Source: Candidatus Poribacteria bacterium (GTDB lineage: Bacteria; Poribacteria; WGA-4E; PCPOR2b). From it: 64,000 bases of DNA. A program made the position numbers and the translations under genes. Below, piece by piece: positions 1 to 45,882 of this stretch (position 1 is the stretch's first letter; each line of letters begins with the position of its first letter). Where the stretch lies: positions 2,560,001-2,624,000 of the forward strand of contig OZ242351.1 in NCBI GenBank assembly GCA_965208675.1, written 5' to 3'. The notes under the pieces were generated by a model that was not told where the DNA came from, searched no databases, and saw only the letters and a list, made by a program, of their open reading frames with translations.

Positions 1-3000
1 GCATTCAGCGGCAACATGGATACCGATGGCACGCTGACTTTCACGGTTGGTTCGGACGCAATTGCAGGCTATACCGGCGCTGCACTCACTGCTGAAATAT
101 CCGTCACGGCGCTTGCAGAATCAGTGATCGCTTCAACATCCGCTCCATTGACAGAGAGGACACTGAATGAGGGCGTAGTTACACTGACACTGAACGGCGG
201 CACTTACGAACGCCAGACCACCGTCAGAAATAACGTGACGGTATCAGGTATTACCGGCGTAACGTTCAGGTCTCTCGATGTGCAGCGTGTGAGCGATACC
301 GTGGTAACGGTTGAACTGTCGTTTGACGGTACTGACTTCGACAGCGACGCGGTCTTGAACTTTACGGTTGGAGCTGATGCGATAGCTGGCTACGACGGTG
401 CCGCGCTCACCGCCGGAATACCCGTCACCGCATTGTTGGAATCGGTGGTCGCCACAACAACCACCCCGTTGACTGAAGGAACGCTAGATGAGAGCGTGGT
501 TACACTGACATTGGACGGCTGTACCTACGAAACTCAGACCGCCGTCAGAAATAACGTGACGGTATCAGGTATTACTGGCGTAACAGTTGGAACCTTCGGT
601 ATAGAGCGTGTGAGCGATACTGTCGCAACGGTTGATCTGACATTTGACGGTTCTGACCTCGACGCCAATGCCGCCCTGACATTCACAGTCGCGGCGGACG
701 CTATTGTGGACTATAGCGGTTCTGCCCTTTCAACCCAAATTACCATCGCCGCACCATCGAACAGAGCACCGGTGTTCACCGATGGCGCCACCGCTGCCCG
801 CTCAGTGGCGGAGAATACGGCAGCGGGCGTAAACATCGGTAATGCTGTGGCGGCTACAGATGCTGACAACGATACCCTTACCTACACCCTCGGCGGTACC
901 GACGCTTCTATGTTTGACATTGAGCGTGCGTCAGGACAGTTGAAGACGCGAGCGGCACTCGATTATGAAACCATACGCGCTTATACCGTAACGGTCACGG
1001 TCTCCGATGGCAGTCTCACTGACTCCATCACCGTCACTATCACAGTCAGCAACGAAAATGATGCACCAGTGTTTGCCGCAGGTAGCGCCACCCGTACAGT
1101 GGGGGAGAATACGGGGACAGGTGTGAACATCGGTAGTGCGGTAACGGCTACGGACCCCGACAACGACGTCCTAACCTACACCCTCGGCGGTACTGACGCC
1201 GCTTCGTTTGACATTAACCGCACATCGGGGCAGTTGAAGACCAAGGCGGCGCTTGACTATGAAACTAAAACTTCCTATATGGTAACAATAACTGTCTCCG
1301 ACGGCAGTCTAACGGACACTATCACGGTGACAATCAATGTGACCAACGTACCTGAAACTCCGACGAACAGAGCGCCAATTTTCTCCGAAGGCAGCCGTAC
1401 CAAGCGAACAGTAGCTGAGAATACGGCGGAGGGCGCAAACATCGGTAATGCAGTGACGGCTACAGACCCCGATAACGACACATTAACCTATACCCTCGGC
1501 GGTATTGACGCGTCTTCGTTTAACATTGAACCGTCAACTGGCCAGTTGAAGACAAAGGCGGCACTCGACTACGAAACCAAAACTTCCTATAGTGTAACGA
1601 TTACTGTCTCCGACAGGGGGCTTACGGACTCCATCACCGTTACCATTGATGTGGCGGACCTAGACGATCAAGCGAGCCCGACAATAACGTTAGAATCGAC
1701 ATCTTTAACGGAGAGGACGCTGAATGGGAGTGTAGTTACCCTGAGGCTGAGTAACCGAATTTTTGAACGATGGCTGAGCGGCCTTGTGACCGTGTCGGGT
1801 ATTGATGGTGTAAGTGTTAGATCGTTTGATTTGAAACGTGTGAGTGATACTGAATTGACCGCTAAACTTACGTTTGACGGCACGGATTTTGATTCCGATG
1901 CTACCCTTACGTTCACGGTTGAGGCGGGGGCAATTGCAAGTTATAACGGTCCTGCATTGACCAATTCCCTACCTGTCGCCGCAAGTCAGGAATCGGTGGT
2001 CGGATCGCCTACCTCCTTAACGGAGACGGCGCTTAATGAGAGCACGGTGACGCTGACGTTGAGCGGGCGTGTCTACGAATCGCGGTTCACGGTTGCAAAT
2101 AACATTACTGTGTCTGGTATTGACGGCGTTACATTTCGCACGTTTGACCTGGAACGAGATAGCGATACGGTGGTAACGGTTAAACTGAGGTTCGACGGTA
2201 CGGACTTTGACACCGATGCCACCCTCAACTTTACAGTTGGGGCGCGCGCAATAGTAGATTATAGCGGGCCCGCATTCACCGCAACAATACCTGTCACCGC
2301 TGTGGTGGAAGCAATCCCAACAATGGCCGCATCGTCTTCACAACCGCTTTATGAAGGGACGCTGGATGAGAGCGTGGTTACATTGACTTTGTCATCCGGT
2401 GCTTACGCACAATCTAGCTTCGACATCAGCCGTGCTGTCACGGTGTCAGGGATTGATGGCGTCACATTTCGCAGGTTTGATGTAGATCGGGTCAGCGATA
2501 CCGTGGCAACGGTTGAGCTGACATTTGACGGCACGGACTTTGACACCGATGCCACCCTCAACTTTACAGTCGGGGCGGGTGCAATTGAGAACTATAACGG
2601 CGACGCACTAACTGCGGAAATACCTGTCACAGCGGTTGTGGAGGAAGACCCAACCATAACGGCATCAACCCCGCAGCCGCTTTCAGAGGCAACCTTGGAT
2701 GAAAGCGTGGTTACATTGACGCTAAAAAACCGGACTTACGCACAATCCAGCTTTGGGATTAGAGATGCCTTAACGGTTGACGGTATTGTCGGTGTAACTA
2801 TTGGTACGTTCGGCGTAGATCGTGTGAGCGACACGGAGGTGACCGTCGAGTTAACTTTCAACGGAGATATTGACACCGATGCTACCCTCACCTTCTCGGT
2901 GGAGGCAGAAGCCATTGCTAACTACGATGGGCAAACGCTGGTTGCACAAGTTCCTGTCACAGGCGGGCAGGAATCGGTAACCGTATCAACAGAGGCGCCG

Positions 3001-5184
3001 TTGACAGAAGCAACCCTCGATGGGAGCGTCGTCACACTCACACTAAATGGCGGCGTTTACGAGCCGTCCACCTTTGACCTCAGAGATGCCGTGACCGTCT
3101 CCGGCATTGATGGTGTCACGATTCAAGGGTTTGATTTGGACCGAGTCAGCGATACAGAGCTTACTGTCGAACTGACATTTGTCGGAAATATAGACACCGA
3201 TGCCGCGCTCGTATTTTCCGTCGGTGCCGATGCCATAGCGGGCTACAATGGCTCCGCGCTGGACACACAATTACCCGTCACAAGCAGGCAGGAATCGGTA
3301 ACTGCATCAATAGAGACGCCGTTGACGGAAGCAACGCTGGATGGGAGCGTAGTCACATTGACGCTAAGCGGCGCAGTTTACGCGAGATCCGTCTTTGACA
3401 TACGAGATTCGGTAACAGTCTCGGGCATTGAAGGTGTAACTATACCTTGGCACCAACCCGATCGGGAGAGCGACACCCAAATCGCCGTTGAACTTGAATT
3501 CAGCGGCAACATTGACAACGATGCCACACTCACCTTCTCGGTCGGAGCCCATGCAATACAAAGATACAACGGCGAGGCATTCATCGCGGAGATACCCGTA
3601 GCTGCGCTGAATGAATCGGTAACCGCATCGTCGGCGGCACCTTTGACGGAAGCAACATTGGCTGGAAGCGTGGTCACACTCACGCTTAGCGACGCTAAAT
3701 ACGCACGTTCTATCTTCGACATCAGAGATGCCGTGACCGTCACCGGCATTGACGGCGTAACTATTCCTTGGCACCAGCCCGACCGTGAGAGCGATACGGT
3801 AATTACTGTTGAACTCGAATTCATCGGCGACTTTGACACCGATGCCACACTCACCTTTTCAGTCGGAGCCGATGCCATAGCGGGATATAACGGCCCCGCA
3901 CTGGTTGCACAAATGTCTGTCGCTGCGGGACAGGAGTCGATAATCGCCTCAACAGAAGCCCCGTTGACAGAATCAACCCTAAATGAGAGCGAGGTCACAC
4001 TGACGCTTAACGGTGCCAATTATGCGCGTTCTATCTTCGACATTAGAGATTCCGTGACAGTATCCGGTATTGACGGCGTAACTATTCCTTGGCACCAACC
4101 GGACCGTGAGAGTGACACTGTTATCACCGTTGAACTTGAATTCACTGGTGACTTTGATACCGATACGGCACTAACCTTCACTGTGGGAGCAGAAGCCATA
4201 GCAAGTTACGATGGCCCAGCATTCACTGCCCAAATTCCCGTCAACGCGAACATGGAATCGGTGGTTGCCTCTTCTGATTCCCCGTTGACAGAGGTAAGCC
4301 TTGATGAGAGCGTGGTCACTCTGACGCTTAGCGGCGCTAATTACGCGCGTTCTATCTTCGACATCAGAGATGCCGTGACCGTCTCCGGTATTGACGGTGT
4401 GACAATCCCTTGGCACCAACCGGACCGAGGGAACGACACCGTTATCACTGTCGAACTTGAATTCGACGGCAACATTAGCGCCGATGCGACACTTACCTTT
4501 ACCGTGGGCGCGGACGCCATTGCAAACTACGTCGGGTCAGAACTCACAGCCGAAATATCCGTCACCGCAGGCCCCCAAGGAGACGCAAACCAAGATGGTG
4601 TGGTGGACCTCGAGGATTTGGTGGAGGTTGCTTCAAACTTTCAACAGACTGGCCCGAACAGTGCTGATGTCAACGGAGACGGTGTGGTGGATGTTGAAGA
4701 CCTGCTCCTAGTTGCAGGCACACTGGAAAACACGGCAGCCGCGCCTGCCGCACATCCACAAACACTGACGATACTCACCGCCGCAGATGTTCAAGATTGG
4801 CTGTCACAAGCGCGGCATTTGGACCTAACGGACACAAAGTTGCAAAGGGGTGTTCTCTTTTTGGAACAACTCCTCACGGTTTTGATTCCGAAAGAAACAG
4901 CGCTGTTGCCCAACTACCCGAATCCGTTCAACCCAGAGACGTGGATACCGTATCATCTGTCCAACGACGCCGATGTACAAATCTCGATTTACGATTCAAA
5001 AGGCATGTTAGTCCGTTGGTTGGATCTAGGTCATCAGATGGCTGGTTACTATACTGATCGCACAAAAGCCGCGTATTGGGACGGAAAGAACGAGTTCGGT
5101 GAGCAGGCAGCGAGCGGTGTGTATTTCTATCACTTGTCCGCCGGCGATTATTTCGCCGTGTGGAAGATGATAATTTTGAAGTAA
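1..5184 (+). CDS. Giant secreted surface protein (5' partial): ~110-aa Ig-like repeats, 3 cadherin domains, dockerin, C-terminal FlgD/T9SS-like domain
   Basis: Frame is open from base 1. Cadherin motifs NRAPVF...ENT...ATDxDxD...LDYE occur three times. At least 11 full TLTL-SG...VSGIDGV...SDT...DAxLTFTVGA repeats. Dockerin GDANQDGVVD/ADVNGDGVVD; terminal LPNYPNPFNPETWIPY...WDG...SGVYFY. Confidence 0.9.
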   Translation, partial: AFSGNMDTDGTLTFTVGSDAIAGYTGAALTAEISVTALAESVIASTSAPLTERTLNEGVVTLTLNGGTYERQTTVRNNVTVSGITGVTFRSLDVQRVSDTVVTVELSFDGTDFDSDAVLNFTVGADAIAGYDGAALTAGIPVTALLESVVATTTTPLTEGTLDESVVTLTLDGCTYETQTAVRNNVTVSGITGVTVGTFGIERVSDTVATVDLTFDGSDLDANAALTFTVAADAIVDYSGSALSTQITIAAPSNRAPVFTDGATAARSVAENTAAGVNIGNAVAATDADNDTLTYTLGGTDASMFDIERASGQLKTRAALDYETIRAYTVTVTVSDGSLTDSITVTITVSNENDAPVFAAGSATRTVGENTGTGVNIGSAVTATDPDNDVLTYTLGGTDAASFDINRTSGQLKTKAALDYETKTSYMVTITVSDGSLTDTITVTINVTNVPETPTNRAPIFSEGSRTKRTVAENTAEGANIGNAVTATDPDNDTLTYTLGGIDASSFNIEPSTGQLKTKAALDYETKTSYSVTITVSDRGLTDSITVTIDVADLDDQASPTITLESTSLTERTLNGSVVTLRLSNRIFERWLSGLVTVSGIDGVSVRSFDLKRVSDTELTAKLTFDGTDFDSDATLTFTVEAGAIASYNGPALTNSLPVAASQESVVGSPTSLTETALNESTVTLTLSGRVYESRFTVANNITVSGIDGVTFRTFDLERDSDTVVTVKLRFDGTDFDTDATLNFTVGARAIVDYSGPAFTATIPVTAVVEAIPTMAASSSQPLYEGTLDESVVTLTLSSGAYAQSSFDISRAVTVSGIDGVTFRRFDVDRVSDTVATVELTFDGTDFDTDATLNFTVGAGAIENYNGDALTAEIPVTAVVEEDPTITASTPQPLSEATLDESVVTLTLKNRTYAQSSFGIRDALTVDGIVGVTIGTFGVDRVSDTEVTVELTFNGDIDTDATLTFSVEAEAIANYDGQTLVAQVPVTGGQESVTVSTEAPLTEATLDGSVVTLTLNGGVYEPSTFDLRDAVTVSGIDGVTIQGFDLDRVSDTELTVELTFVGNIDTDAALVFSVGADAIAGYNGSALDTQLPVTSRQESVTASIETPLTEATLDGSVVTLTLSGAVYARSVFDIRDSVTVSGIEGVTIPWHQPDRESDTQIAVELEFSGNIDNDATLTFSVGAHAIQRYNGEAFIAEIPVAALNESVTASSAAPLTEATLAGSVVTLTLSDAKYARSIFDIRDAVTVTGIDGVTIPWHQPDRESDTVITVELEFIGDFDTDATLTFSVGADAIAGYNGPALVAQMSVAAGQESIIASTEAPLTESTLNESEVTLTLNGANYARSIFDIRDSVTVSGIDGVTIPWHQPDRESDTVITVELEFTGDFDTDTALTFTVGAEAIASYDGPAFTAQIPVNANMESVVASSDSPLTEVSLDESVVTLTLSGANYARSIFDIRDAVTVSGIDGVTIPWHQPDRGNDTVITVELEFDGNISADATLTFTVGADAIANYVGSELTAEISVTAGPQGDANQDGVVDLEDLVEVASNFQQTGPNSADVNGDGVVDVEDLLLVAGTLENTAAAPAAHPQTLTILTAADVQDWLSQARHLDLTDTKLQRGVLFLEQLLTVLIPKETALLPNYPNPFNPETWIPYHLSNDADVQISIYDSKGMLVRWLDLGHQMAGYYTDRTKAAYWDGKNEFGEQAASGVYFYHLSAGDYFAVWKMIILK

Positions 5185-12039: not shown

Positions 12040-12126
12040 GAATGAAGTCCTATCATCCATTTAGGCATTGGACATTAGTTTTAATCTTTATGATGTAGTT
12101 TATGTCAACAATACTTGAGGAAAAAT

Positions 12127-12546
12127 ATGACCTTGCAAGTTCAAGAGGTTCAAAACAGCCCCAGCACCCCGCGTTTCATCATAGCAGCCAAGACGGACGA
12201 AATTAGACCGGGTAGCTGTATTGACGCAAAGCTAGAAGGGCATTGCATTGGTATCCACAATGTCGATGGACAGTATTACGCGGTCGACAATATTTGTCCC
12301 CATGTTGGCGGAGTTTTACACTCAGGTCAGTTAATGGACGGGGTTATCGTCTGTCCAATTCATCAATGGAAGTTTGATGTCAAGACGGGCGCGTGCATCT
12401 GGCCGGGGAAATGCGAGATTGCGACCTATCCCGTGAAGGTTGACGGCGACCACATTTTTGTTGATATCAATTCACCGAGCCGCCCAATCCAACATAACCC
12501 CATTCGAGTTTATCATACGAAGGCAAAACGGAGGGCAAAGCCGTGA
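12127..12546 (+). CDS. Rieske [2Fe-2S] ferredoxin (NirD-like)
   Basis: CPH...CPIHQWKFDVKTG. Confidence 0.85.
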   Translation: MTLQVQEVQNSPSTPRFIIAAKTDEIRPGSCIDAKLEGHCIGIHNVDGQYYAVDNICPHVGGVLHSGQLMDGVIVCPIHQWKFDVKTGACIWPGKCEIATYPVKVDGDHIFVDINSPSRPIQHNPIRVYHTKAKRRAKP

Positions 12547-12899
12547 TAACTGTCGCGAATCGAATTTACGTTGCGCCTGAATTTAGAGAAGACTTCGAGG
12601 CGCGTTTCCGAAATCGCGCACGCCTTGTCGACGGCATGCCCGGGTTCATATCAAATCAGGTGTTGCGGCCGGTAAATGACGATGACCCTTACGTGGTTTT
12701 TACACTTTGGGCATCACGCAAAGACTTTGAAAACTGGGTGGAATCGGATGAATTCCGGAAGGGGCATGCCCAATCCGGAACATTGCCCAAAGAGGCGTTC
12801 ACGCAATCGAACAAGTTAGAACTTCACGAGGTATTTCTCGATTCTTCTCGTCCGGACCTTGTGGAAGAGCCGCACGGCGGCGCATTCAGCGTACATTAG
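12543..12899 (+). CDS. ABM-domain heme-degrading monooxygenase (IsdG/HmoA-like)
   Basis: VANRI...FEARF..R...GMPGF...W..S..F..H. Confidence 0.8.
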   Translation: MITVANRIYVAPEFREDFEARFRNRARLVDGMPGFISNQVLRPVNDDDPYVVFTLWASRKDFENWVESDEFRKGHAQSGTLPKEAFTQSNKLELHEVFLDSSRPDLVEEPHGGAFSVH

Positions 12900-13046
12900 A
12901 ATGTGTAAAAACAACCGACATTCAGATTTCAGATAAAGGCTCACGAAGATGTACGACGAATTGTTTTCACACGAATCTATCAGTAAAACATATGAGCACA
13001 TTTGTACCGACACGGCGAGTGTGGCTCAATTCGTAAAATTACTTAT

Positions 13047-13067
13047 TGATACTGAGATTCGTTTTCA
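13047..13067. promoter_or_regulatory. Fur-like operator 3, overlapping a possible + strand promoter (TTGATA-17-TAAATG, 13046-13074)
   Basis: TGATACTGAGATTCGTTTTCA. Confidence 0.7.
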
Positions 13068-13082
13068 ATAAATGTGAAAAAA

Positions 13083-13242
13083 ACAGAAAGGGCCAACAAC
13101 AGGGAAAGGGACAGCACGCAACGGTCAATTGTTAGCTAGCTCCCGTATCCCCGTTGATTAGATGAATTGGGGCTTTTTTGCGCCCAATCGGGGCGAACGT
13201 TAGCAAATCAACAATTTCCCAAACGCGCCCCGCCCTTTCTGT
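13083..13242 (-). ncRNA. Candidate structured ncRNA, copy A (~160 nt)
   Basis: Terminal stem ACAGAAAGGGC/GCCCTTTCTGT; covarying inner stem; 22-nt block identical to copy B; G-U pairs favour the minus strand; U-tract at the 3' end. Confidence 0.7.
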
Positions 13243-13249
13243 ACAAATA

Positions 13250-13279
13250 AGAGTAAGCCAATCGCTTAACAAATGTCAA
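13250..13279 (-). promoter_or_regulatory. Minus-strand sigma70-like promoter for ncRNA copy A
   Basis: TTGACA-18-TACTCT, 7 nt before the stem start; same arrangement in copy B. Confidence 0.65.
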
Positions 13280-13343
13280 GAAAATAGTACGTCGTCGGTC
13301 AATGACGACGACATTAATAACCATTATCAGGTTGAGGATTTAT

Positions 13344-13598
13344 ATGATGAAACTAACCCCTATCCAATTTAGCATCTTGTTGTTGGTAATGGTGGCTGCA
13401 ACCGGTCTGGTGTTGTCTGGTTGTGAGAGCGACCCTTTGCTTGAACCGCAGTCTCAAGTCCCTGAAGAGACCGGCAGCTACGGCAATACGAATCTCCCGG
13501 TCAGTGGAACCGACAACTCGAACAATGCGGTCAACGCCGGTCAGAATAAAGATATTGACGGCAACCGCTACAGGAAAACCAATCCAGAACTCTTTTGA
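13344..13598 (+). CDS. Small lipoprotein, unknown function
   Basis: GAGGA RBS, hydrophobic leader, lipobox LSGC. Confidence 0.7.
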   Translation: MMKLTPIQFSILLLVMVAATGLVLSGCESDPLLEPQSQVPEETGSYGNTNLPVSGTDNSNNAVNAGQNKDIDGNRYRKTNPELF

Positions 13599-13617: not shown

Positions 13618-16089
13618 ATGCATCAGATTTTAGGAATTTTAATGACATTAATTCTTCTACTAGGCACGCCGAATCTTTGCTTTAGCTCAGTCGAGATTCG
13701 CGGTAAAGTTGTTGACAAAGAGACGGCACAACCGATTATGGGCGCCGCGGTTAGAATTGAATCCAATGGACAGGACTCGCGAGAGACAAAAACGGTACGA
13801 GATGGCACTTTCCATTTTGCTCAGGTTGACTTGGGGCAGATACTGATTAAGGTAAGTCTGATCGGTTATGATGATTATGTTGAGATGCTTGAGATAGATT
13901 CCGATACCACGCAAGCGTTAGACATAGCCTTGTTGAGCCGTCTCTTTGAATTTGCGCCCGTAGAGATCATTGGCAAATCACCGCAGATTAACAGAAAACT
14001 CACCGGCACTATTAGCGTATTGGAACCGCAATCGGTCGAGTTGATTCGCCCGGTTGGGACACAGGAATTGCTCGAACTCATGCCCGGCATAAACGGCTAC
14101 GCGGACGACGGATTCGGAAATTCGCGTTTGAGCATTGGCATCCGCGGTTTGAATCCGCGCCGGAGTGCGCGAGTCCTTATCCTAGAAGATGGTGTACCGA
14201 TTCAACCCGCGGTCTACATCTATCCGAATGCCTACTACAATCCGCCATCAGATAGAATCGATGCGGTGGAGGTCATTAAAGGGAGTGCCGCACTTCGTTT
14301 TGGTCCCCAAACAATGGGTGGGGTCATTAACTATACTACTCATAAACCGGTGGGGACCCGCCGCTTGGCAAATCAGTTGACTGTCGGAAATAACGGATTT
14401 TACAGCGCCTTCTCGGAGTGGCGGGGCCTCGGCAGCAAAAATATCGCTTCCGACGTACAACTGCTTTATAAACACGGCGACGGATTTCGGGAAAACAATT
14501 CGTTTGACCAAGCGAACGGCACCGTAAAGACGCTGTTCCAATTGAGTGAGCAAAAGACGCTCTATCTCAAAGCTAACGGCAATTTTGAAGACTCGAGCGC
14601 GACCTACACTGGATTGACGGAATACTCCTTCCGAACTGACCCAAACTTCAATCCGAAGGAGGACGATAATTTTAAGGTCATTCGTACATCGCTTGATCTA
14701 ATTTACACGAACAGGATTTCAAATAATCTCATAAGCAACACCACCGTATACACAAGCGTGTTTGACCGCCGATGGTGGCGCGAGGATGATATCTACGTTC
14801 GTCCTTCGGCAATTGAAACGGGGAATTTAGCGCCGGTCCCCTATTTTCAAACCGGGGACTTAGTGAGAATAGGCGGCGGAAAAGGGAATTTTGGAATCTT
14901 GAGGACGTTTTACGTCGGCGGCATAGAACAAAATTATTCCTTCAAACACCGCCTTGCCGGGACACACAGCAACGCTGACATTGGCGCACGAGTTCACTGG
15001 GAACGCTTTATCGACGATAAAAAGATTGGTGATGCTCCAGATGCACGCGACGGTGTCTACTACACTGGCACGCCGGTGGACGCCGAAGACCCCGTGAAAA
15101 TTGTGGGTCAAAGCCACCACTACGAAACCGCTGCCCTCGCACTCTATGCTAAAGAACAACTTGAGTGGGACGAGTTCACGCTGACTCCGGGACTCCGCTT
15201 TGAGGTGTTTAAGCAGGACCGAGTTGACCGGCTATACGGTTCTGTGCTAGCCGACAAGGTTTCTTCTGTTGTGTTGCCCGGCATAGGAGCAAACTATCAG
15301 CTCGGTAGATTCAATCTGTTCGGAGGGGTTCACAGAGGATATACAGCGCCATCCAGCGGAGCGTTAAAAATTACCAATTTCGGACAAAACGTCGACGCCG
15401 GCGGGCTCGACCTCAAGGCCGAAAAGAGTTGGAACATGGAAGCCGGTTTCAGGTCTTGGGGGCAGCGTTTGACCGTAGAAGTCACCGGATTCCTAATTAG
15501 CATCTCGGACATAGTCGCGGCAGGACGTGGTACAGCCTTTAAGAATTTAGGTAGAGTTGACAATTACGGATTGGAAACCGCGGTTGCAATCGGCGTTTCA
15601 CGATTCGCACCGTTGCTTCCCGACGTTAATCTTGCTTACACCTATCTCCAAACTGAAATCAAGAGCGGTATCGTCAAGTCCGCCACTATTGCCGGGAACG
15701 TAGATGTAGACCTCGTTGGAAACGAATTGCCCTACGCGCCGCGGCACACCTTGACTGTCGGATTGGCAAAACAGCTTGGTGATGCCCTGCGCTTGAGAGC
15801 AGACATGCGATTTGTCGACAAGGTCTTCACAGACTTTGAGAATATCGAACAGACGTTTAATCGCGGTGATACTGGCCCCATTCCGAGCTACACAATCGTC
15901 AATGCAAGTGCGGATTATAAAATTTCGAGCCAATGGAAGGCTTTTGTTGCGGGCAAAAACCTCTTTGACAAAGTCTACATCGGGTCGAGATTGCACTCGA
16001 ACGCCGGTCAACCAGAAGCAAACCTAAGCTCAGGTATTCTTGTTGGACCCAGGCGGCAGATACTTTTTGGTATCAAGCATGGGTTTTAG
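13618..16089 (+). CDS. TonB-dependent receptor, FecA-like, with N-terminal carboxypeptidase-regulatory-like domain
   Basis: IGIRGLNPRRSARVLILEDGVP, IDAVEVIKG...GGVINY, C-terminal F. Confidence 0.92.
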   Translation: MHQILGILMTLILLLGTPNLCFSSVEIRGKVVDKETAQPIMGAAVRIESNGQDSRETKTVRDGTFHFAQVDLGQILIKVSLIGYDDYVEMLEIDSDTTQALDIALLSRLFEFAPVEIIGKSPQINRKLTGTISVLEPQSVELIRPVGTQELLELMPGINGYADDGFGNSRLSIGIRGLNPRRSARVLILEDGVPIQPAVYIYPNAYYNPPSDRIDAVEVIKGSAALRFGPQTMGGVINYTTHKPVGTRRLANQLTVGNNGFYSAFSEWRGLGSKNIASDVQLLYKHGDGFRENNSFDQANGTVKTLFQLSEQKTLYLKANGNFEDSSATYTGLTEYSFRTDPNFNPKEDDNFKVIRTSLDLIYTNRISNNLISNTTVYTSVFDRRWWREDDIYVRPSAIETGNLAPVPYFQTGDLVRIGGGKGNFGILRTFYVGGIEQNYSFKHRLAGTHSNADIGARVHWERFIDDKKIGDAPDARDGVYYTGTPVDAEDPVKIVGQSHHYETAALALYAKEQLEWDEFTLTPGLRFEVFKQDRVDRLYGSVLADKVSSVVLPGIGANYQLGRFNLFGGVHRGYTAPSSGALKITNFGQNVDAGGLDLKAEKSWNMEAGFRSWGQRLTVEVTGFLISISDIVAAGRGTAFKNLGRVDNYGLETAVAIGVSRFAPLLPDVNLAYTYLQTEIKSGIVKSATIAGNVDVDLVGNELPYAPRHTLTVGLAKQLGDALRLRADMRFVDKVFTDFENIEQTFNRGDTGPIPSYTIVNASADYKISSQWKAFVAGKNLFDKVYIGSRLHSNAGQPEANLSSGILVGPRRQILFGIKHGF

Positions 16090-20431: not shown

Positions 20432-20800
20432 ATGAGTTATAGTGCAGATTTAAGGAAACGAGTTGTCAGTTATGTTAAAGCTGGCGGCAGCAAAATCGAA
20501 GCCGCTCGCCGATTCGATATCAGTCGAAGGACGGTGTACAATTGGTTAGCGTCAGTCAACCTGCCGCCTAAACCGCGGGCGCCGCACGCCCGTAAATTTG
20601 ACATTGGCGCTTTACGGCGTCACGTAAAGGATTATCCTGATGCCATACTCTCAGAACGCGCTCAACAGTTCGGCGTATCCATAAGTACGATATGGTATCA
20701 TTTGAATCAGATGAATTTATGCAGGCGAAACCATCAGCATATCAATAAAAACATCACTGCAACCGAGACAAGTCTTGCCGTGAATACCGTAACCGATTAG
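20432..20800 (+). pseudogene. IS630-family transposase N-terminal HTH fragment (no DDE part)
   Basis: MSYSADLRKRVV...EAARRF.ISRRTVYNW...PDAILSERA. Confidence 0.75.
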
Positions 20801-20949
20801 ATTTAAAGCCAGGGGAGATGCCATCCATGTTCGTGCGTGGAAATTTGACTCAACTACTTAACGAAGTGCGGCACGACGCCATCATAAGACAACGAGGCAT
20901 CGCATTGGGAGAAACTGACGCCGCCGCATGGTACATTTTTAAAAATGGC

Positions 20950-20970
20950 TGATACTGAGACTCATTTGCA
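20950..20970. promoter_or_regulatory. Fur-like operator 4
   Basis: TGATACTGAGACTCATTTGCA. Confidence 0.7.
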
Positions 20971-20987
20971 TAAATCAGACCTAATAT

Positions 20988-21107
20988 AACAGAAAAGGCG
21001 AACGATAGATATAGGGAAGAACTCGCAACGTCCAATTGTTAGCCGCATTCCCTATCCCTATCGGATTCATAAATTGGGGCTTTTTTGCGCCCACCGCCCT
21101 TTCTGTT
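20988..21107 (-). ncRNA. Candidate structured ncRNA, copy B (~120 nt)
   Basis: Terminal stem AACAGAAAAGGCG/CGCCCTTTCTGTT; inner stem CGATAGATATAGGGAA/TTCCCTATCCCTATCG; conserved loops shared with copy A. Confidence 0.7.
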
Positions 21108-21113
21108 CCCATT

Positions 21114-21143
21114 AGGATAAGCCAGTCGCTTTGAGATTGTCAA
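21114..21143 (-). promoter_or_regulatory. Minus-strand sigma70-like promoter for ncRNA copy B
   Basis: TTGACA-18-TATCCT, 6-7 nt before the stem start. Confidence 0.65.
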
Positions 21144-21170: not shown

Positions 21171-23117
21171 ATGACGTTGCACACCCAAATTTTGATGGGG
21201 GTTTTCGCCATCTTCGCCATTGGGGAAATAACTTTAAAGACAGGCCCCAAATCTGCCTATGCCTTCGATTCAACTGAGTTAACCAATGACATTTTTAAGA
21301 TGGACGAGATTGTCATCACCGGTACAAAAACCGAGCGTCAATTGAAAAATACACCTATTATCACCGAGATTATCACGCGCAGCGAAATCGAAGCAACAGG
21401 TGCAGAGAACATCGGAGAGGCGTTAGAGCATCGAGTGGGTGTCGTTGTCAATCGTGACGCCCACGGCGACGGAGTTCAACTGCAAGGGCTAGATTCGGAT
21501 TACATCCTAATTCTGGTCGACGGCGAACCGCAGGTTGGGCGAATCGCCGGCAAACTGGATCTTGCGCGTATGACAGTCGAAAATGTTGAACGGATCGAGA
21601 TTGTCAAAGGCGCATCGTCTGCGCTCTTCGGCAGCGCCGCGATGGGGGGCGTAATCAACGTTATCACGCGAAAAATATCATCGCCGTTTACTGCTCAATT
21701 CACCAACAACTTCGGGAACCACAACACCATTGACAGCCGTAGCACGGTTGGGTTGAATCGCGGCAAGTTCAACGGGTTAATGACGGTTACTGCAAACCGC
21801 CGAAACCCAATCGACCTGGACAAGTCAGACCTTACGACAACGATTGACGGCTATCAAAACTGGACCCACTCGGCGCGAACTGAGTATCAACTGACCCCAA
21901 AATCAACCCTCCTGTTTTCGGGGCAATATTTTGCCCAAAATCAGGACGGTGTCAGCGAAAGAGAGGGCGCCGTTTTTGACCGGCTCGGCGACATTGACAA
22001 CTTCAGCGGCAGCGTCGGCACGGAATATCAAGTCGGATCCCGCTCAAAGTTGATGGGCAAAATTTACGGCACGCGGTACCGCGATGAATCCACGGTTATC
22101 GACCGCGGCGCATCGCTCACCGCGTCATCAAATGTCACAATTCAAGACCTAATCAAGGGCGAAGTGCAATATGACGCCGCTCTCGGTTCAAAAAATCAAC
22201 TGACCGTTGGCGCAGAACTGATATTTGAAAATCTCGAATCGAAACGCATCACGGGCGGCGAAAAGGACATCACAACCGACTCGCTGTTTTTCCAAAACGA
22301 ATTTCGACCAATGGCAAAACTGTCGATTGTCTTGGGCGGACGGTTTGACAATCACTCCGAATTTGGAACACATTTCAGTCCAAAGTTGAGCGGGATGTAT
22401 CACGTGACACCTAATCTAACGATGCGTACCTCCTTCGGTGAAGGTTTTCGCGCCCCTGACTTCAAAGACCTATATCTCGATTTCAGCAATGTGACATCCG
22501 GGTATCAGGTGCTTGGAAATCCGGACTTACAACCGGAGTCGTCGGGCAACTGGAATCTTGGAGTTGAATACCTATTCAAGTCCTCAATTCGCGGACGGGC
22601 GCACCTGTATCGAAACAACCTAAACAACCTTATTGAAGCGGAACGGATCGGGACAAGCGTGCTTGGTGGGAGTAAGTTTCAGTATTTTAATGTCAGCGAG
22701 GCATTCACTGAAGGGCTTGAAGTCGAATTCTCGACCCGCTCAATTAGGGGATGTGCCGCCTCAATCGGCTATGCATATCTCAACGGCGAGGACAAGGAGA
22801 CCGGTATGGCGCTGCTGAACCGATCAAAGCATAGCGGTAACCTCAAGCTCGTTTACATGAACCCGGACGCCGGTGTCAACCTTGACCTGCGCGGGCGTTA
22901 CGCCAGTAAGTGGGGTTTTTACGACGACGGTGACAAGGTACTTGAAGATGAGGAGTATGCGCCAAGCAACTGGATATGGAACATTCGGGCGTCGAAGCAG
23001 GTCATCAAATGGTTAAAAGCCTCGTTCGGAATCAACAACATCTTCGACTTCAAAATTCCGACCTTTTATCCCTTTTCCGGGCGGTCATTTTACGGCGGTT
23101 TGTCGCTAAATTACTGA
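21171..23117 (+). CDS. TonB-dependent receptor, probably heme (HmuR-like)
   Basis: TonB box DEIVITGT, VERIEIVKG..S.LFGS.AMGGVIN, GFRAP, GNPDLQPE; adjacent to HmuY. Confidence 0.9.
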   Translation: MTLHTQILMGVFAIFAIGEITLKTGPKSAYAFDSTELTNDIFKMDEIVITGTKTERQLKNTPIITEIITRSEIEATGAENIGEALEHRVGVVVNRDAHGDGVQLQGLDSDYILILVDGEPQVGRIAGKLDLARMTVENVERIEIVKGASSALFGSAAMGGVINVITRKISSPFTAQFTNNFGNHNTIDSRSTVGLNRGKFNGLMTVTANRRNPIDLDKSDLTTTIDGYQNWTHSARTEYQLTPKSTLLFSGQYFAQNQDGVSEREGAVFDRLGDIDNFSGSVGTEYQVGSRSKLMGKIYGTRYRDESTVIDRGASLTASSNVTIQDLIKGEVQYDAALGSKNQLTVGAELIFENLESKRITGGEKDITTDSLFFQNEFRPMAKLSIVLGGRFDNHSEFGTHFSPKLSGMYHVTPNLTMRTSFGEGFRAPDFKDLYLDFSNVTSGYQVLGNPDLQPESSGNWNLGVEYLFKSSIRGRAHLYRNNLNNLIEAERIGTSVLGGSKFQYFNVSEAFTEGLEVEFSTRSIRGCAASIGYAYLNGEDKETGMALLNRSKHSGNLKLVYMNPDAGVNLDLRGRYASKWGFYDDGDKVLEDEEYAPSNWIWNIRASKQVIKWLKASFGINNIFDFKIPTFYPFSGRSFYGGLSLNY

Positions 23118-23365
23118 GCCATGATTCTCAACGTTGGACACTGCGTCTCTGACAACTCTCTTATCGGGTAGAGAGTGGTCTGAAAAAACCAACCCAACTT
23201 GTAGCTTGGCAATCGTTACGCGTGGAATTTGCTTCACGTTGCTTCTCAATTTTTGCATACGATTTCTGTCGCCAGCACATCGCTCCCGCGGGACTTGACA
23301 CCCAAGGGTGTGCGCTGTTGACAGTTGCTAACCTTAATCCAAAAACATTAAAAGGATATCAGGTA

Positions 23366-23995
23366 ATGAAGAAGATTAGGTTTCTCTTAACACCGATATT
23401 CATCTGCACAATAATTTTCGGCGTGGTACCGGCTGATGCGAAAGTTCACAGCGCAACCGTCACCATTGACGCCACGAGCCGCGAGGCGTGGACATTTTTC
23501 AGCTTCTCAACAGGTAAGCCGGTCGAAGTTGAACACCATTCATCCTCAATAAATTGGGACCTCGGTTTCCAAAGGACAATGGTGATTGTCAACGGTGGTG
23601 CCAGCGGTCCCGGTGAAGGCACCGTCCTAATATTAGAAGGTGTTCAATTTGAAGATGTTGTCGCTGCGCCGGAAGGCGTCTACGTACCGGATACCGACCA
23701 GATTGCCACGATTGCACGGGGAGACGGTTGGTACACCTACACCGGTCCCCCAAATCACTTGGTTCTGCCCAACGATCGGGTCTACGTGCTGCAAACCGCA
23801 GCCGGGCTGTTCGCAAAGTTGCGCTTTATCGGCTATTACAGCGACAACGAAGCCAAGGAAGGCTCTGGTAATATCACCATCGAGTATGCCTTCCAAGACG
23901 ACGGCAGCCGCAGTTTCCAGACGTCTGCTCAAACCTCAGTCGAAGCGAAAGCGAAACTCGTAACGACATGGGCGCGGCTTAAGTTCGGTAGTTGA
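23366..23995 (+). CDS. hmuY: HmuY-family heme-binding protein with C-terminal VEAKAKLVTTWARLK tag
   Basis: TIDATSREAW.FFSF, WDLGFQR, NGG.SGPG.G, GWY.Y, AKLRF..YY. Confidence 0.8.
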   Translation: MKKIRFLLTPIFICTIIFGVVPADAKVHSATVTIDATSREAWTFFSFSTGKPVEVEHHSSSINWDLGFQRTMVIVNGGASGPGEGTVLILEGVQFEDVVAAPEGVYVPDTDQIATIARGDGWYTYTGPPNHLVLPNDRVYVLQTAAGLFAKLRFIGYYSDNEAKEGSGNITIEYAFQDDGSRSFQTSAQTSVEAKAKLVTTWARLKFGS

Positions 23996-24265
23996 TTCGC
24001 CGACAGATGAACCTTATATGCTTGCTCGCCGCCAATTTGCTGCCGCGGCGAGCAAGATTAGCGAACTTTACTCTATTTAATGTTGTACTCGTAAGGTCTA
24101 CCAATTGCCAACCCAAGACTCCCAAGCTAGTTTGGGTTGTGGACGAGCGTGAAGCTTGTATTGGCAAGTCATGCGTAACGTCAAGGAAATTATTCCCTAC
24201 CATTACGCATTACGCTTTACTCATTATTCACTACACAGCAATCAATTTTGCCAAGAGAATAAAAG

Positions 24266-29655: not shown

Positions 29656-29838
29656 TTTCCGGCTTCAAGCGCTAGTGTACCACATGATAGGACAAGAATC
29701 AAACCGCTGCAATTCGTGCCGAACCGAATAAAAGCCTGTTTTTGTAGGTTGGAATCGACTACGTAAGTGGCGAAGGATAAACCGACCGAATAGGATCAAC
29801 TGAGCGAATAGCGAAGGCGATAGTCTTCTCCAGTCTTC

Positions 29839-30100
29839 GTAGGTTGGGTTAAGCGGAGCAAATGAAAGATGCGAAACATGTCGAGTGGATATTTGTATTA
29901 GAATTCGTTCAGGATTTTTTGTGATGCAGCGAACCCAACGTTTTTCGTTAATTTCGAGGCGTCCAGGTTTTCGGGCGACGTGGGGGTATCCAAAAAGCGT
30001 TGGGTTACGCGCCGTGCATCAGATTTTGTACGTCGTTAAGCTCTTGGCACGAAACGTAAAACCGTACATCATTTGGTAAAATTCGCTCAACCCAACCTAC
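29839..30100. repeat. GTAG-family REP/MITE element
   Basis: GTAGGTTGGGTTAAGCG ... CGCTCAACCCAACCTAC with inner AACCCAACG/CGTTGGGTT arms. Related copies at 32085, 33101, 35497, 38092, 44137, 45883. Confidence 0.8.
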
Positions 30101-30114
30101 ACAATCTTAACCGT

Positions 30115-30160
30115 TTACGCATTACGCTTTACTCGTTACGCTTTACTCGTTACGCTTTAC
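30115..30160. repeat. Heptamer tandem repeat (TTACGCT/TTACTCG)
   Basis: Seven consecutive TTACnCn-type units; also at ~24203, ~38318, ~45805. Confidence 0.75.
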
Positions 30161-30405
30161 CGTAGGAGCAATCTCCGTATCGCGGCACACATGCCCTTGA
30201 TCGCTCTACACAACCTACAATAGCCGATCATGAAAAAGCGCCGGCGGCTGCGACGTTTTTTACCCGATTGCACAAATTCGGCTTCGTGGATAGAAGTTTG
30301 ATAATACGCCGAGAAAAATGGTATGATAAATGAAAATTGATGATTCTTGTGTAGATTCTAATTTTCAATCTTTCACCACGCACCAATCGAAAGGGGATAT
30401 CCACT

Positions 30406-31911
30406 ATGAATCGTTCAATATTCAAATTCAGCGTGACATCAATCGCCGGGATTGTGGTGTTGTTGGTAACCTCCGTGTCGCTCGGCATCACGCCGAAAAT
30501 CCCAAGCACACTCTCTGGGCGTGTAGTTGATGTAGAAGGGAATCCGGTCGCCGGGTTTCCGCTAACCATGAAGCCCATAAAACTTGTCAACGGCTATGCT
30601 GTTGCGGCAAATAGCGGCCTTCCGATAATTTCTGTCGATACAACCGATGAAGCGGGACATTTCATTATCACCCCTGTAATGTCCGGCCCGGTTCAACTGA
30701 TTGGATCGTCTTCAGCGCCGCAGGAATCTCAGAAAAGTTATGAACTGCTATCAATGAAAATCGGCGCGATAACTGTCTATCCAACAGTCCTGTCGCACTC
30801 AAAGGGGATTAAGCTTTTGATTGAGCCGGGAACACATCTCGAAAACGTGAGAATCACGGTGCGGCCTCGTACTCGTTATCGCGGATTGGTCGTATCAAAG
30901 GATGGCACACTGTTTAAGAACGCGCAGATCGACCTCCACGTGCGAAGTGAATACAACAATGGGATGTCTAGTACAGAGACAAAAGGATCGTCAACGCGAA
31001 CGAATTCGGACGGTTACTTTGTGAGATACGTAGATGAGCCTAATTTCGAGGTCGCATCCTACAAGGTTTCGGTGAAATGTCAAGGGCTTTCGGCAACGTC
31101 CGAGTTTACCCTCAAAAGTGGAGAGCAGCGGGAAGATCTGGTCTTCACACTCCAAGAAACTTCCATGTTGATGCGGGGACGAATCGTATTTGAAGACGGC
31201 ACTGTACTTCCGAAAGCAATGTTCATGTTAGAGGTACGCAGTGGCGGTTCGGATAAAAGTTCTCTCCACCATTCAAGTCGCCGACCTGTGACCGATTATG
31301 CCGGTTACTTTATCGAATTTTTGCCTCAACCTGGAGTCTATGTCGCGTCCGTAGAATATCAAGGACTCTCTGCGGCATCGAAATTTACGGTCAAATCTGG
31401 GGCAGAGCGCAAAGACATGGTGTTCACACTCAACGACACACCAATTCGGGACATGATGGGATTGATGGCACCCACCGAACCGAACATGCTTGGCGTGTGG
31501 ATTGGGGCTCCCAATGAAAGCCTTTACAAAAGCATTCGTTGCAGCAGTTGGCAAGATGCCCAAACCAAAGCACGCACAGAAGGTGCACAACTCGTTTCAA
31601 TAAATGACAGTACCGAGCAGGAGTGGCTGGTCGAGCACTTTGGCTTTCATTCCTATTGGATTGGGTTGACCTATTCAGTTGAAGCGGGCGAATGGCAGTG
31701 GAACAGCGGAGAACCAGTTGTCTATACCAACTGGATGAGGAGTCAACCTGAGCATACAGAGGCTGATAGTTATGGTAGTATGGGCGGGAATTTACGTGGA
31801 CAGTGGCGCACACATGGACAGCTTGGAAGTGGAGCCTTAAGCGAATCCTCACCTAGAGTAGCGATCCTTGAAAAACGGATTGCCGGTACAGCGCCGTTGG
31901 GGGATAGGTAA
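30406..31911 (+). CDS. Secreted protein with transthyretin/carboxypeptidase-regulatory-like repeats and C-terminal C-type lectin domain
   Basis: SGRVVD.EGNPVAG; SWQDAQ..A...GA.LVSIND..EQ.WL...YWIGL...W.W.SGE...YTNW. Confidence 0.8.
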   Translation: MNRSIFKFSVTSIAGIVVLLVTSVSLGITPKIPSTLSGRVVDVEGNPVAGFPLTMKPIKLVNGYAVAANSGLPIISVDTTDEAGHFIITPVMSGPVQLIGSSSAPQESQKSYELLSMKIGAITVYPTVLSHSKGIKLLIEPGTHLENVRITVRPRTRYRGLVVSKDGTLFKNAQIDLHVRSEYNNGMSSTETKGSSTRTNSDGYFVRYVDEPNFEVASYKVSVKCQGLSATSEFTLKSGEQREDLVFTLQETSMLMRGRIVFEDGTVLPKAMFMLEVRSGGSDKSSLHHSSRRPVTDYAGYFIEFLPQPGVYVASVEYQGLSAASKFTVKSGAERKDMVFTLNDTPIRDMMGLMAPTEPNMLGVWIGAPNESLYKSIRCSSWQDAQTKARTEGAQLVSINDSTEQEWLVEHFGFHSYWIGLTYSVEAGEWQWNSGEPVVYTNWMRSQPEHTEADSYGSMGGNLRGQWRTHGQLGSGALSESSPRVAILEKRIAGTAPLGDR

Positions 31912-32619
31912 TTAAACATGAGATTCAAGTTACTGAAAGGATAACCCGCAGCAACCTAACAAAAGGAGGCAAGACGATGAACCCTTCGTACGGTAGAGCT
32001 AACCTGAAAACTCTCTCTGCATTTGTGGCACTTTCACTTCTCGCATCGGCATTTGGCTTTACGACGCCGAGACACTGAGTTCTGGTAGGTTGGGTTGAGC
32101 GTGTAATACCAAAACCCGTCCTGCGCAATGATCCGTTCCGATTTAAGTAGGGCGTGGATTTCCAAATACGGGGAGCGTAACCCAACGCTTTACCTACACT
32201 GTATAAGGATTACGATAGCGGTTCTACAATCTTCATTCCCTTCCTTACCAAGGAGGGATCAACTGTACGAATAGCAAAGACCCGACCGAATAGGTTCAAG
32301 CGACCGAACAGGGAACACGATAGTCTTGGTTCTTCTCGTTTAGCTCTAACAGCGAATCCCAACGATTTTAACCATCTGGAGGATTCAATAGCGTCCGCCG
32401 TCGCTAATCACAAACAAACCTAGAACTCCCCCTTTCGACGGATCGGCGCTTGCCGTCAACGAGCGTTGCATTCGCTTCAAGATTCTGTTTCAGTAACCGC
32501 GGCGTTTGGAGTGCCGTCAGCGCACGGACACGTTGTTGCATCTTCATTGCAGTAAGGGTAGATTGCCTATGCTCTATTCGGTTATAATTCCTCATTTTCG
32601 GCAATAATGGAGGTTCAAA

Positions 32620-33075
32620 TTGAAAGTCAGAAGATTCACCGCATTTGCATCTATACTCGGGATTAGTCTCCTGATTATTAGTCTTTCCTCATGCGATCAA
32701 CTCGTGCAGGTATTGTCCGATGACGATGAGTTTGCGGAAGATCCACCACGCCATGAGACTATTGACTCCATAACGTATGTCATCAATGAACTCCCAATTG
32801 TAGATGGTACGGCAGAGATTCTTGAGACCGCTCCGCCTCAAGTTAATCTGCATATCAACGGTTACCTTTCAGACAGTTGCACAACCCTTCATCAGACAAC
32901 TGATTCGCGGCACGACAATACAATCCATATTCAAATTACGACTAAACGTCCTATTGACTTGGCGTGCGCCGCTGTGATTACCGAAATTGAACATTTCGTA
33001 TCGCTAGGAACATTTGAACCGGGCGAGTATCAGGCAATTATCAACGATTTTTCCATCAATTTCAAGGTCGATTAG
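32620..33075 (+). CDS. Hypothetical lipoprotein
   Basis: GGAGG RBS, lipobox LSSC, GYLSDSC...AC..VI. Confidence 0.7.
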   Translation: MKVRRFTAFASILGISLLIISLSSCDQLVQVLSDDDEFAEDPPRHETIDSITYVINELPIVDGTAEILETAPPQVNLHINGYLSDSCTTLHQTTDSRHDNTIHIQITTKRPIDLACAAVITEIEHFVSLGTFEPGEYQAIINDFSINFKVD

Positions 33076-33100
33076 ATCGCCGAAACCGGTAGAAGTCTTC

Positions 33101-33430
33101 GTAGGTTGGGTAGAGCGATCAACTGAGCGAATAGCGAAGGATCAACCGAGTGAATAACGAGGGCGATAGTCTTCTCCAGTCTTCCCCGAAACTCAACATC
33201 AACTGTAGGAATAGATCAACCGACTGAATGAGGATTGCGACAGCGATATTGCAATCTTAATTCCCCTCCTTACCAAGGAGGGGCTAGGGGAGGTTATAGG
33301 ACAGGATTAACCGACCGAATAAGATCAACTGAGCGGATAGCGAAGGATCAACCGAGTGAATAACGAGGGCGATAGTCTTCTCCAGTCAAAGTCCTCCCCG
33401 TTCAGCCGGTTGATCGCCCTACCCACCCCA
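33101..33430. repeat. Composite REP cluster with GATCAACYGASYGAATA modules
   Basis: GTAG REP arm followed by two module arrays and a CCCCTCCTTACCAAGGAGGGG palindrome. Confidence 0.7.
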
Positions 33431-33669
33431 CCAATGCAAGTTCCGTCAATTTCGCAGCGGGGAATGGACTACGGATTAGGCAATCTGCGCCGCGATTAGT
33501 AAAATTACCATGCTATAACATAACCCAAGATGTTAGAATAGGAGAATAACCGAGTTTTGTCATAAATACTCCGTTTCTAGTGTTTGGTTTATCAACTAGC
33601 AACCTTCGTTATTTGCACCTTAAATGCGTATCTCCTAACCGTTTCACAAAGAAAGGGAAATACAACTTT

Positions 33670-45793: not shown

Positions 45794-45882
45794 GCCCTTA
45801 CCCATTACGCTTTATTCATAATTCTTTACTCATTACGCTTTACTCGTTACGCTTTACCGTAAGCGCGATCAAGCGAGTTTTT

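Follow-up and report, generated by a model that had tools for sequence, protein, structure and literature searches.

We analyzed a stretch of 64,000 nucleotides (nt) from the genome of a Candidatus Poribacteria bacterium (contig OZ242351.1, positions 2,560,001 to 2,624,000; below, the window) and found two copies of a structured element that reads as the gene for a minus-strand RNA, each lying opposite the predicted leader of an operon for a TonB-dependent receptor. The case for a new RNA family is well supported, by covariation among 85 copies, by conservation of the promoter and by constant synteny. The family probably consists of cis-antisense small regulatory RNAs (sRNAs) that act at the leaders of iron and haem receptor operons, where the predicted sRNA would most likely restrain expression of the receptors. 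A first-pass annotation, made from the letters of the window, had proposed a structured RNA antisense to the leader of an iron-uptake operon. Its observations were confirmed apart from a pseudoknot, and its interpretation was supported.

A family of predicted structured minus-strand RNAs

We used a DNA search and two covariance models (R1, built from 28 minus-strand copies, and R2) to find copies of the element, and Pfam and NCBIfam profiles to classify proteins. The family, its fold, strand, promoter and synteny were all computed directly. The two regions that the first-pass annotation had called homologous, delimited here as copy A (13083-13242) and copy B (20989-21106), aligned over their whole length and through both flanks. 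A 22-mer at 13165-13186 is identical in the two copies, and the apical motif is near-identical. In the flanks, an A/T-rich Fur-type palindrome is conserved on the plus-strand upstream side of both copies, and a motif ...TTGTCAAG... is conserved downstream, which reads CTTGACA on the minus strand. The DNA search and the two covariance models found just these two copies in the single-contig 4.9-Mb genome. The predicted features are as follows.

13083-13242, minus: sRNA copy A, about 160 nt; model match 13081-13244; R1 112.8 bits, E 5e-25; R2 94.4 bits
20989-21106, minus: sRNA copy B, about 120 nt; model match 20987-21108; R1 114.8 bits, E 1.7e-25
13274-13279, minus: -35 hexamer TTGACA of copy A, read from the sequence; same hexamer at the same distance in 74/85 homologues
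13250-13255, minus: -10 hexamer TACTCT of copy A; 18-nt spacer; ends 5 nt before model position 1; predicted start near 13243-13242
13232-13242, minus: 5' strand of closing helix P1 of copy A, from the fold and the family pairing
13189-13231, minus: insertion hairpin of copy A, about 40 nt extra, lineage-specific, at a variable expansion site
13165-13186, minus: short hairpin with an A6 loop (the 22-mer of both copies); helix 2, both-side changes in 4/4 pairs
13097-13156, minus: long hairpin P2/P2b/P3 with the conserved apex; helices 3-5, both-side changes in 8/8, 3/4 and 2/8 pairs
13119-13131, minus: near-invariant apical motif, CAAUUG-ACC-GUUG in RNA sense; family consensus CAAUUGGCNGUUG
13083-13093, minus: 3' strand of P1 of copy A; a U run comes next (13082-13077)
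13289-13314, minus: terminator-like hairpin just upstream of the -35 hexamer of copy A; 9 pairs, then a U-rich tail
21114-21143, minus: promoter of copy B, TTGACA-18-TATCCT; 10/12 matches in a generic promoter scan

Single-sequence folding of copy A gave a closing helix, the insertion hairpin, the A6-loop hairpin and the long hairpin. The terminal stem (13083-13093/13232-13242) and the inner stem (13097-13104/13149-13156) pair as the first-pass annotation had described, with compensating changes between the copies, and the stems of both copies were reproduced by the single-sequence folds (minus-strand z of -4.3 and -5.4, plus-strand z of -4.6 and -5.5). The insertion in copy A does fold as a separate hairpin and is shared with a sister genome (L039); other lineages have shorter or longer extra hairpins at the same site. 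The hairpin at 13289-13314, which ends a few bases before the -35 hexamer of copy A and is also kept in the sister genome, may insulate the RNA promoter against minus-strand transcription that arrives from upstream, or it may be part of the plus-strand leader.

Relatives of 73-83% identity were recovered by the DNA search from 25 of 60 related genomes. The covariance-model search, one of the checks that the first-pass annotation had called for, gave full-length R1 matches in 75 of 151 genomes of the same order as this one, whose families are labeled here f1 (21/28 genomes), f2 (44/104), f3 (8/11) and f4 (1/7); g5 is our label for a genus. R1 gave no match in the phylum sample, which comprised 11 genomes from five further families. 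Such absences are soft, as the search filters were stricter and the model was trained on two families. Among the other genomes, those with matches have one or two copies each, always at iron or haem loci. Matches at E values up to 1e-4 in 84 sources, including 51 further loci, gave a set of 85 copies of 116-189 nt; we left out one more weak match, which lay on the other strand of a locus already in the set. Second copies in genus g5 (L079, L085, L089, L091, L098, L107, L112, L118 and L126) are a diverged third type of about 140 nt at a different locus.

Judged on the aligned sequences of the 85 copies (83 distinct rows, fitted to the minus-strand model), the fold is well supported. Standard pairs occupied 92.5% of the cells, versus 43.7-53.4% when the 3' partners were slid by 1-3 columns, and the covariation score was 0.256, versus 0.043-0.095 with slid partners. 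Both sides had changed in 21 of the 36 pairs, and none of five measures was reached by shuffled data (0/500). Well-populated alternatives occur at pairs 192-229 (AU 39, CG 29, UA 11), 179-243 (AU 36, UG 26, UA 12, CG 2), 191-230 (GC 52, AU 26) and 3-262 (GC 49, AU 23). Fitting the alignment to a model inflates pairing somewhat, but the slid controls use the same alignment and pair far less, so the fold signal is specific. P1, a helix of 11-12 bp, encloses a variable region and one long irregular hairpin. The variable region consists of the A6-loop hairpin in the window copies, joined in copy A by the insertion hairpin, and of one to three larger hairpins in f2.

Four independent lines of sequence evidence point to the minus strand as the one that encodes the RNA: wobble pairs, the consensus fold, the promoter and the 3' end. 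It had been noticed in the two window copies that several A-C mismatches on the plus strand become G-U pairs on the minus strand. This asymmetry held across the 85 homologues, where the minus-strand reading had 261 G-U cells versus 72 A-C cells, recurring at several pairs, and the core of P1 (pairs 10-255, 11-254 and 12-253) had 67 versus 2. Most of the A-C cells are at helix ends, where the pair is probably absent in the lineage concerned. RNAalifold, run on the same 28 sequences aligned with MAFFT and not fitted to a model, gave -41.6 kcal/mol and 36 pairs for the minus strand and -17.5 kcal/mol and 24 pairs for the plus strand. Single-sequence folds were good on both strands, as expected for complements, with the minus strand 5-10 kcal/mol more stable.

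We found TTGACA-N17/18-TAnnnT ahead of P1 in 74 of the 85 copies, the arrangement and distance claimed for copy A by the first-pass annotation (TTGACA-18-TACTCT, at 13279-13274 and 13255-13250). The spacer is 17 nt in 9 copies and 18 nt in 65, and from the end of the -10 hexamer (mostly TATTCT, TATCCT or TATCTT) to model position 1 there are 5 nt in 61 copies and 6 nt in 13; the sequence between the two hexamers is unconserved. Of the 11 copies outside the pattern, most differ by a single letter or are second copies in visible decay, and one is truncated. In this window, the generic promoter scan found one site versus 0.9 expected for copy B and listed none for copy A, because TACTCT matches TATAAT at only 3 of 6 positions. 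Since single-window matches are at chance level, the weight of the promoter rests on its conservation. In silico, then, the element has a promoter of its own opposite the target transcript.

The 3' end is similarly strand-specific. At least nine U in the 15 nt past P1 were present in 42/85 copies on this strand and in 0/85 on the other, and runs of at least four U past P1 in 45 copies versus 2. The U-tract reported for copy A consists of seven U (13082-13077 and on); the tail of copy B is moderately U-rich, and 8 of the 9 g5 second copies have an extra small hairpin and a U-rich stretch at the 3' end. P1 is a long-range helix and not a simple hairpin, and a scan for intrinsic terminators found none at the 3' end of either copy. 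A small open reading frame (ORF) of 46 codons at 13132-13272 (minus) is present in copy A only, and indels among the homologues are not multiples of three; a coding function was rejected.

The most conserved part of the RNA is the apex of the long hairpin. CAATTG is present in 83/85 copies, and alignment columns 206-218 are conserved in at least 79/85, save for one variable loop base. In RNA sense, a short CAAU/GUUG stem with a UGGCN loop makes up the apex, and below it come an AA/GG internal loop and an AGCU/AGCU stem. We take the apical loop sequence, UUGG, to fit a YUNR-type U-turn motif. Both window copies (13119-13131 and 21024-21040) have GUUGCG at the apex, where GUUGGG or GUUGAG stands in 81 of the remaining 83 homologues, copy A of the sister genome among them. 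The derived G-to-C change is thus shared by copies A and B and found in none of the other 83, and the flanking bases differ between the two copies; this pattern suggests a parallel change or a very short conversion tract. A pseudoknot that the first-pass annotation had thought possible, between CAAUU and the loop AAUUG, did not hold up as a family feature: a partner 5-mer on the upstream side of the long hairpin (CAAUU or CCAAU, for the apical AAUUG or AUUGG) was present in 31/85 copies (12.2 expected from mononucleotide shuffles), and it is nearly confined to f1, where it is inherited, being found in 0/9 f3 copies and absent from most f2 copies. A discrete minus-strand RNA with conserved unpaired sequence, as originally predicted, is supported by the promoter, the conserved closing stem, the covarying inner stem and the near-invariant apex of the 85 homologues.

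We compared the element with known RNA families. There were no matches at the gathering threshold of Rfam 15 for the whole window or for 20 homologous loci from all sub-groups. At E values up to 10, the regions around copy A, copy B and one f2 copy gave only chance-level matches (11.6-22.7 bits, below the gathering scores). Membership of any Rfam 15 family, including any Poribacteria-named motif, was therefore rejected, as the first-pass annotation had anticipated. A full-text literature search, covering article text and not supplementary motif lists, returned nothing relevant on an RNA motif or small RNA of Poribacteria, and we know of no described regulatory RNA for this group.

Fur-like sites and iron or haem operons

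The element lies among genes related to iron and haem in the window. The features that surround the two copies are listed below.

12115-12546: Rieske gene, preceding the ABM gene and copy A
12543-12899, plus: ABM-family, haem-oxygenase-like gene (Pfam ABM, 9.7e-23), convergent with the RNA
13046-13068, plus: Fur-box-like palindrome and probable operon promoter at copy A; 21-mer with 4 mismatches to a Fur consensus, starting 14 nt past the RNA 3' end
13344-13598, plus: small lipoprotein-like ORF, the first gene past copy A; signal peptide with Cys; no family match
13618-16089, plus: TonB-dependent receptor A, with plug, barrel and CarboxypepD_reg domains; siderophore/FecA-like below cut-off
20949-20970, plus: Fur-box-like site at copy B; 4 mismatches, 17 nt past the RNA 3' end
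21171-23117, plus: TonB-dependent receptor B; haem, B12 and siderophore receptor families, all below cut-off
23222-23995, plus: HmuY-like haem-binding protein gene after receptor B (Pfam HmuY, 3.4e-19)

The top NCBIfam match of the ABM gene was haem-degrading HmuQ (59 bits), followed by IsdG-type haem oxygenases, all below cut-offs. A DUF4856 gene also belongs to the gene series past copy A, after the lipoprotein-like ORF and receptor A. Directly upstream of the Fur-like site of copy B, a 122-aa ORF at 20432-20800 has only the helix-turn-helix N-terminal domain of an IS630-type transposase.

We predicted Fur-like sites, A/T-rich palindromes of 19-21 bp, by comparing 21-mers with a consensus of our own drafting (GATAATGATAATCATTATC). 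All 30 of the f1/f3-type copies had a Fur-like 21-mer with 2-5 mismatches 1-20 nt past the RNA 3' end. At the same stringency there was only one further Fur-like site in the 64-kb window. None of the other 55 copies had a Fur-like site within 30 nt. In f2, the Fur-like sites precede the ABM and Rieske genes at a distance of 374-640 nt from the RNA, and the RNA gene begins about 5-11 nt past the ABM stop codon; because it follows that stop codon directly, the f2 RNA is predicted to be antisense to the spacer of an ABM-receptor operon. The RNA's own promoter had no Fur-like site with 5/21 or fewer mismatches. The genome holds two Fur-family genes.

The usual position of the RNA is between the haem-oxygenase-like ABM gene and a TonB-dependent receptor gene. 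Among 80 ABM loci from different species, 62 had the RNA, read from the opposite strand, no more than about 330 nt past the stop codon. Seven matches at the same place on the other strand scored 29-35 bits, versus 90-119 bits. The genes that the RNA faces encode TonB-dependent receptors, PepSY_TM proteins followed by receptors, HmuY, and, for the g5 second copies, cytochrome-c lipoproteins. The g5 second copies face genes for lipoproteins that contain a planctomycete-type cytochrome-c domain, except in L085, where the gene encodes a 632-aa protein without a confident family; no Fur-like site was found near these copies. Five g5 genomes (G012, G018, G023, G024 and G028), like the window, hold two RNA-receptor modules, 5-10 kb apart. 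In two genomes from the same genus as the window (L128 and L129), the DHOR, Rieske and ABM genes are kept and the receptor operon behind ABM is missing together with the RNA and the Fur-like site; from these gene contents, the RNA-receptor module is accessory within the genus.

The -35 hexamer of the RNA is about 10-35 nt from the ribosome site or start of the divergent downstream gene. Because this interval is so short, the promoter of the downstream gene is predicted to lie beyond the RNA gene, and its mRNA to carry the full complement of the RNA. By these distances, a sense transcript would overlap the RNA gene. The generic scan listed no plus-strand promoter at either copy; within the Fur-like site, TTGAnA-16/17-TAAAnn can be read as a plus-strand promoter by eye only. 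The claim that the RNA is antisense to the leader of an iron-uptake operon is borne out at the level of prediction for the TonB-receptor operons, which a Fur-box-like site precedes.

An antisense model and its alternatives

We propose that each copy is a gene for a structured minus-strand RNA of about 120-165 nt. A sigma-70-type promoter (TTGACA, 17-18 nt, TAnnnT) would start transcription at P1, and the RNA would end in the U-rich sequence that follows the 3' strand of P1. The gene would lie inside the untranslated leader of plus-strand mRNAs that encode TonB-dependent iron or haem receptors and start at Fur-box-like promoters, or, in other lineages, inside the spacer between cistrons. The RNA would then be fully complementary to that leader. 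Its promoter would fire regardless of iron, because it has no Fur-like site. When iron is replete and Fur nearly closes the sense promoter, the antisense RNA and convergent transcription could clear leaky receptor transcripts and so set a threshold; upon release of Fur, sense transcription would override the sRNA. Contact might start by loop-loop pairing at the conserved apex (the UUGG loop), and with their near-identical apical loops copies A and B could also act on each other's leaders. We infer that the RNA is expressed, that it represses and how its duplex acts. As to how it would repress, interference between convergent promoters, or a loop-loop complex that alters folding or termination of the leader, seems likelier than duplex cleavage.

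Several observations weigh against this antisense model. The expression, ends and strand of the RNA are all predictions, and the 85-row alignment was fitted to the minus-strand model, which biases the pairing and wobble tests toward that strand. P1 with its U tail is not a textbook terminator, and the tail of copy B is weakly U-rich. The plus-strand promoters are poor matches to the consensus and were missed by the promoter scan. The duplex would be about 45-220 nt upstream of the ribosome site, too far away to block translation directly. The apex is conserved across the order, more than a purely cis-acting antisense RNA needs, and this points to an extra or different function. Finally, the degradation step is without an obvious agent, because RNase III, Hfq and ProQ were not found. 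The RNase III profile PF14622 had matches in 0/31 Poribacteria genomes and PF00636 had none in the bacterium's own genome, in searches that gave matches in 8 of 14 control genomes; in the same genome (96.4% complete, one contig) Hfq (PF17209) and ProQ (PF04352) had no matches. RNase III is the usual enzyme for antisense duplexes, and co-degradation by it is weakened as the effector step by these searches. If real, these absences would mean that the phylum has neither the standard double-strand RNase nor the standard sRNA chaperones, based on 31 genomes for RNase III and the one genome for Hfq and ProQ.

The strongest rival is a stand-alone RNA that acts in trans or binds a factor, with the apical hairpin contacting a protein, a ligand such as haem, or distant mRNAs, and with the locus reflecting co-inheritance or shared control. 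We regard this reading as unlikely, though several features fit it. The apex CAAUUGGCNGUUG is kept in at least 79/85 copies while the surrounding stems covary, and both window copies share one derived change there. The g5 second copies sit at another locus, before cytochrome-c lipoprotein genes and with no Fur-like site nearby, and a duplex that stops short of the ribosome site in genomes where RNase III was not found is less awkward for an RNA of this kind. However, a genome search with the 17-mer complement of the copy B apex found the two cis sites and three sites with 2 or fewer mismatches, versus about 0.7 expected by our own estimate, which is no extended complementarity beyond chance. 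No convincing distant target was seen genome-wide, in a search that is uninformative for short seeds, and a trans target with long complementarity was rejected. Moreover, the RNA is always head-to-head with, and about 10-35 nt from, a gene whose transcript would cross it, an arrangement that a free-standing gene does not need, and none of the results indicates a partner protein or ligand.

A further reading, which we hold to be more doubtful still, goes beyond an antisense brake to a Poribacteria-specific riboregulator. Here the apex (CAAUUGGCNGUUG above the AA/GG loop) would bind a factor or ligand, such as haem or an iron-status protein, and thereby coordinate haem and iron receptors with ABM and cytochrome-c genes.

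It is improbable that the plus strand is the functional one, as a riboswitch-like cis-regulatory leader of the receptor mRNA beside which the minus-strand hexamers are incidental. The element is always sense-upstream of iron or haem uptake genes and would be part of their mRNA, and its single-sequence plus-strand folds are good (z of -4.6 and -5.5). Yet the plus-strand consensus fold is far weaker than that of the minus strand (-17.5 versus -41.6 kcal/mol, 24 versus 36 pairs), the 261 G-U cells become A-C on the sense strand, and there are A-C mismatches in the P1 core in many lineages. On this strand, the AA/GG internal loop near the apex would become CC/UU. We found no conserved expression platform, terminator or pairing against the ribosome site; the stretch from the element to that site is made up of two hexamers and an unconserved spacer. 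Those hexamers have an exact promoter geometry on the other strand in 74/85 copies, and the U-rich tail is absent on the plus strand.

That the element acts as DNA, as operator palindromes or a mobile or duplicated intergenic repeat without RNA function, is very improbable: its position between regulated genes, the CAATTG palindrome with inverted repeats and the IS630-type transposase fragment before copy B would fit, but the element occurs twice in 4.9 Mb and once or twice in other genomes that carry it, without exception at one kind of locus, both-side changes in 21/36 pairs with G-U tolerated on one strand only are unexpected of DNA palindromes, and hairpin inserts of variable length at one site are typical of RNA. 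Many scattered copies, which the first-pass annotation had named as the mark of a miniature inverted-repeat transposable element, were not seen in the DNA search or with the two covariance models, and a dispersed repeat of this kind was rejected.

Other features of the window and related systems

Some repeats in the window are separate from the RNA and its operons. A long array of 321-nt tandem direct repeats (60-76% identity) occupies 35-4554 and presumably encodes a repeated-domain protein, and repeats spaced 123-147 nt at 46837-48672 have translated motifs of WD40 type. Short tandem repeats of a 14-nt unit (TTACGCTTTACTCG-like) are found in intergenic-looking sequence at 24200-24237, 30100-30187 and 45795-45884. 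A second repeat family, of about 46-65 nt, occurs five to six times within 29771-38183.

Poribacteria are uncultured sponge symbionts, and the RNA family offers a concrete handle on how a symbiont controls iron and haem uptake inside its host. A few model cases are known of antisense control of Fur-regulated receptors, and here the candidate for such control is conserved across an order. If the RNA represses, the mechanism would differ from textbook duplex cleavage, since RNase III was not found in 31 genomes. The covariance models could be used to annotate the family in further genomes and in metatranscriptomes.

CopA, RNA I and Sok are highly structured antisense RNAs whose hairpin loops, of the YUNR type, start pairing with a loop of the target. 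The apical UUGG loop of the Poribacteria RNA would fit such a motif. The Poribacteria RNA differs in being chromosomal, in lying at an iron-uptake locus and in belonging to another family. RyhB, PrrF1/PrrF2 and FsrA are Fur-repressed RNAs that act in trans on the mRNAs of iron-using proteins, mostly with Hfq or other chaperones, and the PrrF genes are duplicated beside a haem-uptake locus. They resemble the RNA described here as small RNAs tied to iron homeostasis, PrrF also in its duplication near haem uptake. At the Poribacteria loci, by contrast, the Fur-like site belongs to the opposing promoter; a search of this genome did not find Hfq, and no Rfam model of any such family matches.

Another parallel is RNA-alpha of Vibrio anguillarum, which together with Fur represses fatA, for an outer-membrane ferric-siderophore receptor, and fatB under iron-rich conditions (PMC5524678). 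As proposed for the Poribacteria RNA, this is an antisense RNA that works with Fur on a receptor gene. Synthesis of RNA-alpha needs Fur, whereas the promoter of the Poribacteria RNA is without a Fur-like site. RNA-beta reportedly acts inside the fat operon, uncoupling upstream from downstream genes; in that respect its position resembles the ABM-receptor spacer of f2. Unlike the Poribacteria RNA, both are encoded on a plasmid of a gamma-proteobacterium and pair with the fatA and fatB mRNAs, to which they are complementary; no related sequence was seen.

A further parallel is IsrR, the antisense RNA of isiA in Synechocystis, which acts with FurA; the proposal there is that IsrR removes leaky sense transcripts under iron sufficiency and is overridden once iron runs short, so that the response has a threshold (PMC8635728). 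The likeness is one of design, a cis-encoded antisense RNA combined with a Fur-family repressor on an iron-stress gene. There are also differences. The Poribacteria RNA faces an untranslated leader or the spacer between two cistrons and does not extend as far as the ribosome site. The two RNAs are not alike in sequence or structure, and the predicted target is a receptor operon, whereas isiA encodes a photosystem antenna. The Poribacteria RNA also has a covarying fold and an apex that is conserved across an order. Systems that combine antisense RNA with Fur regulation of an iron gene are a known kind; the family is new.

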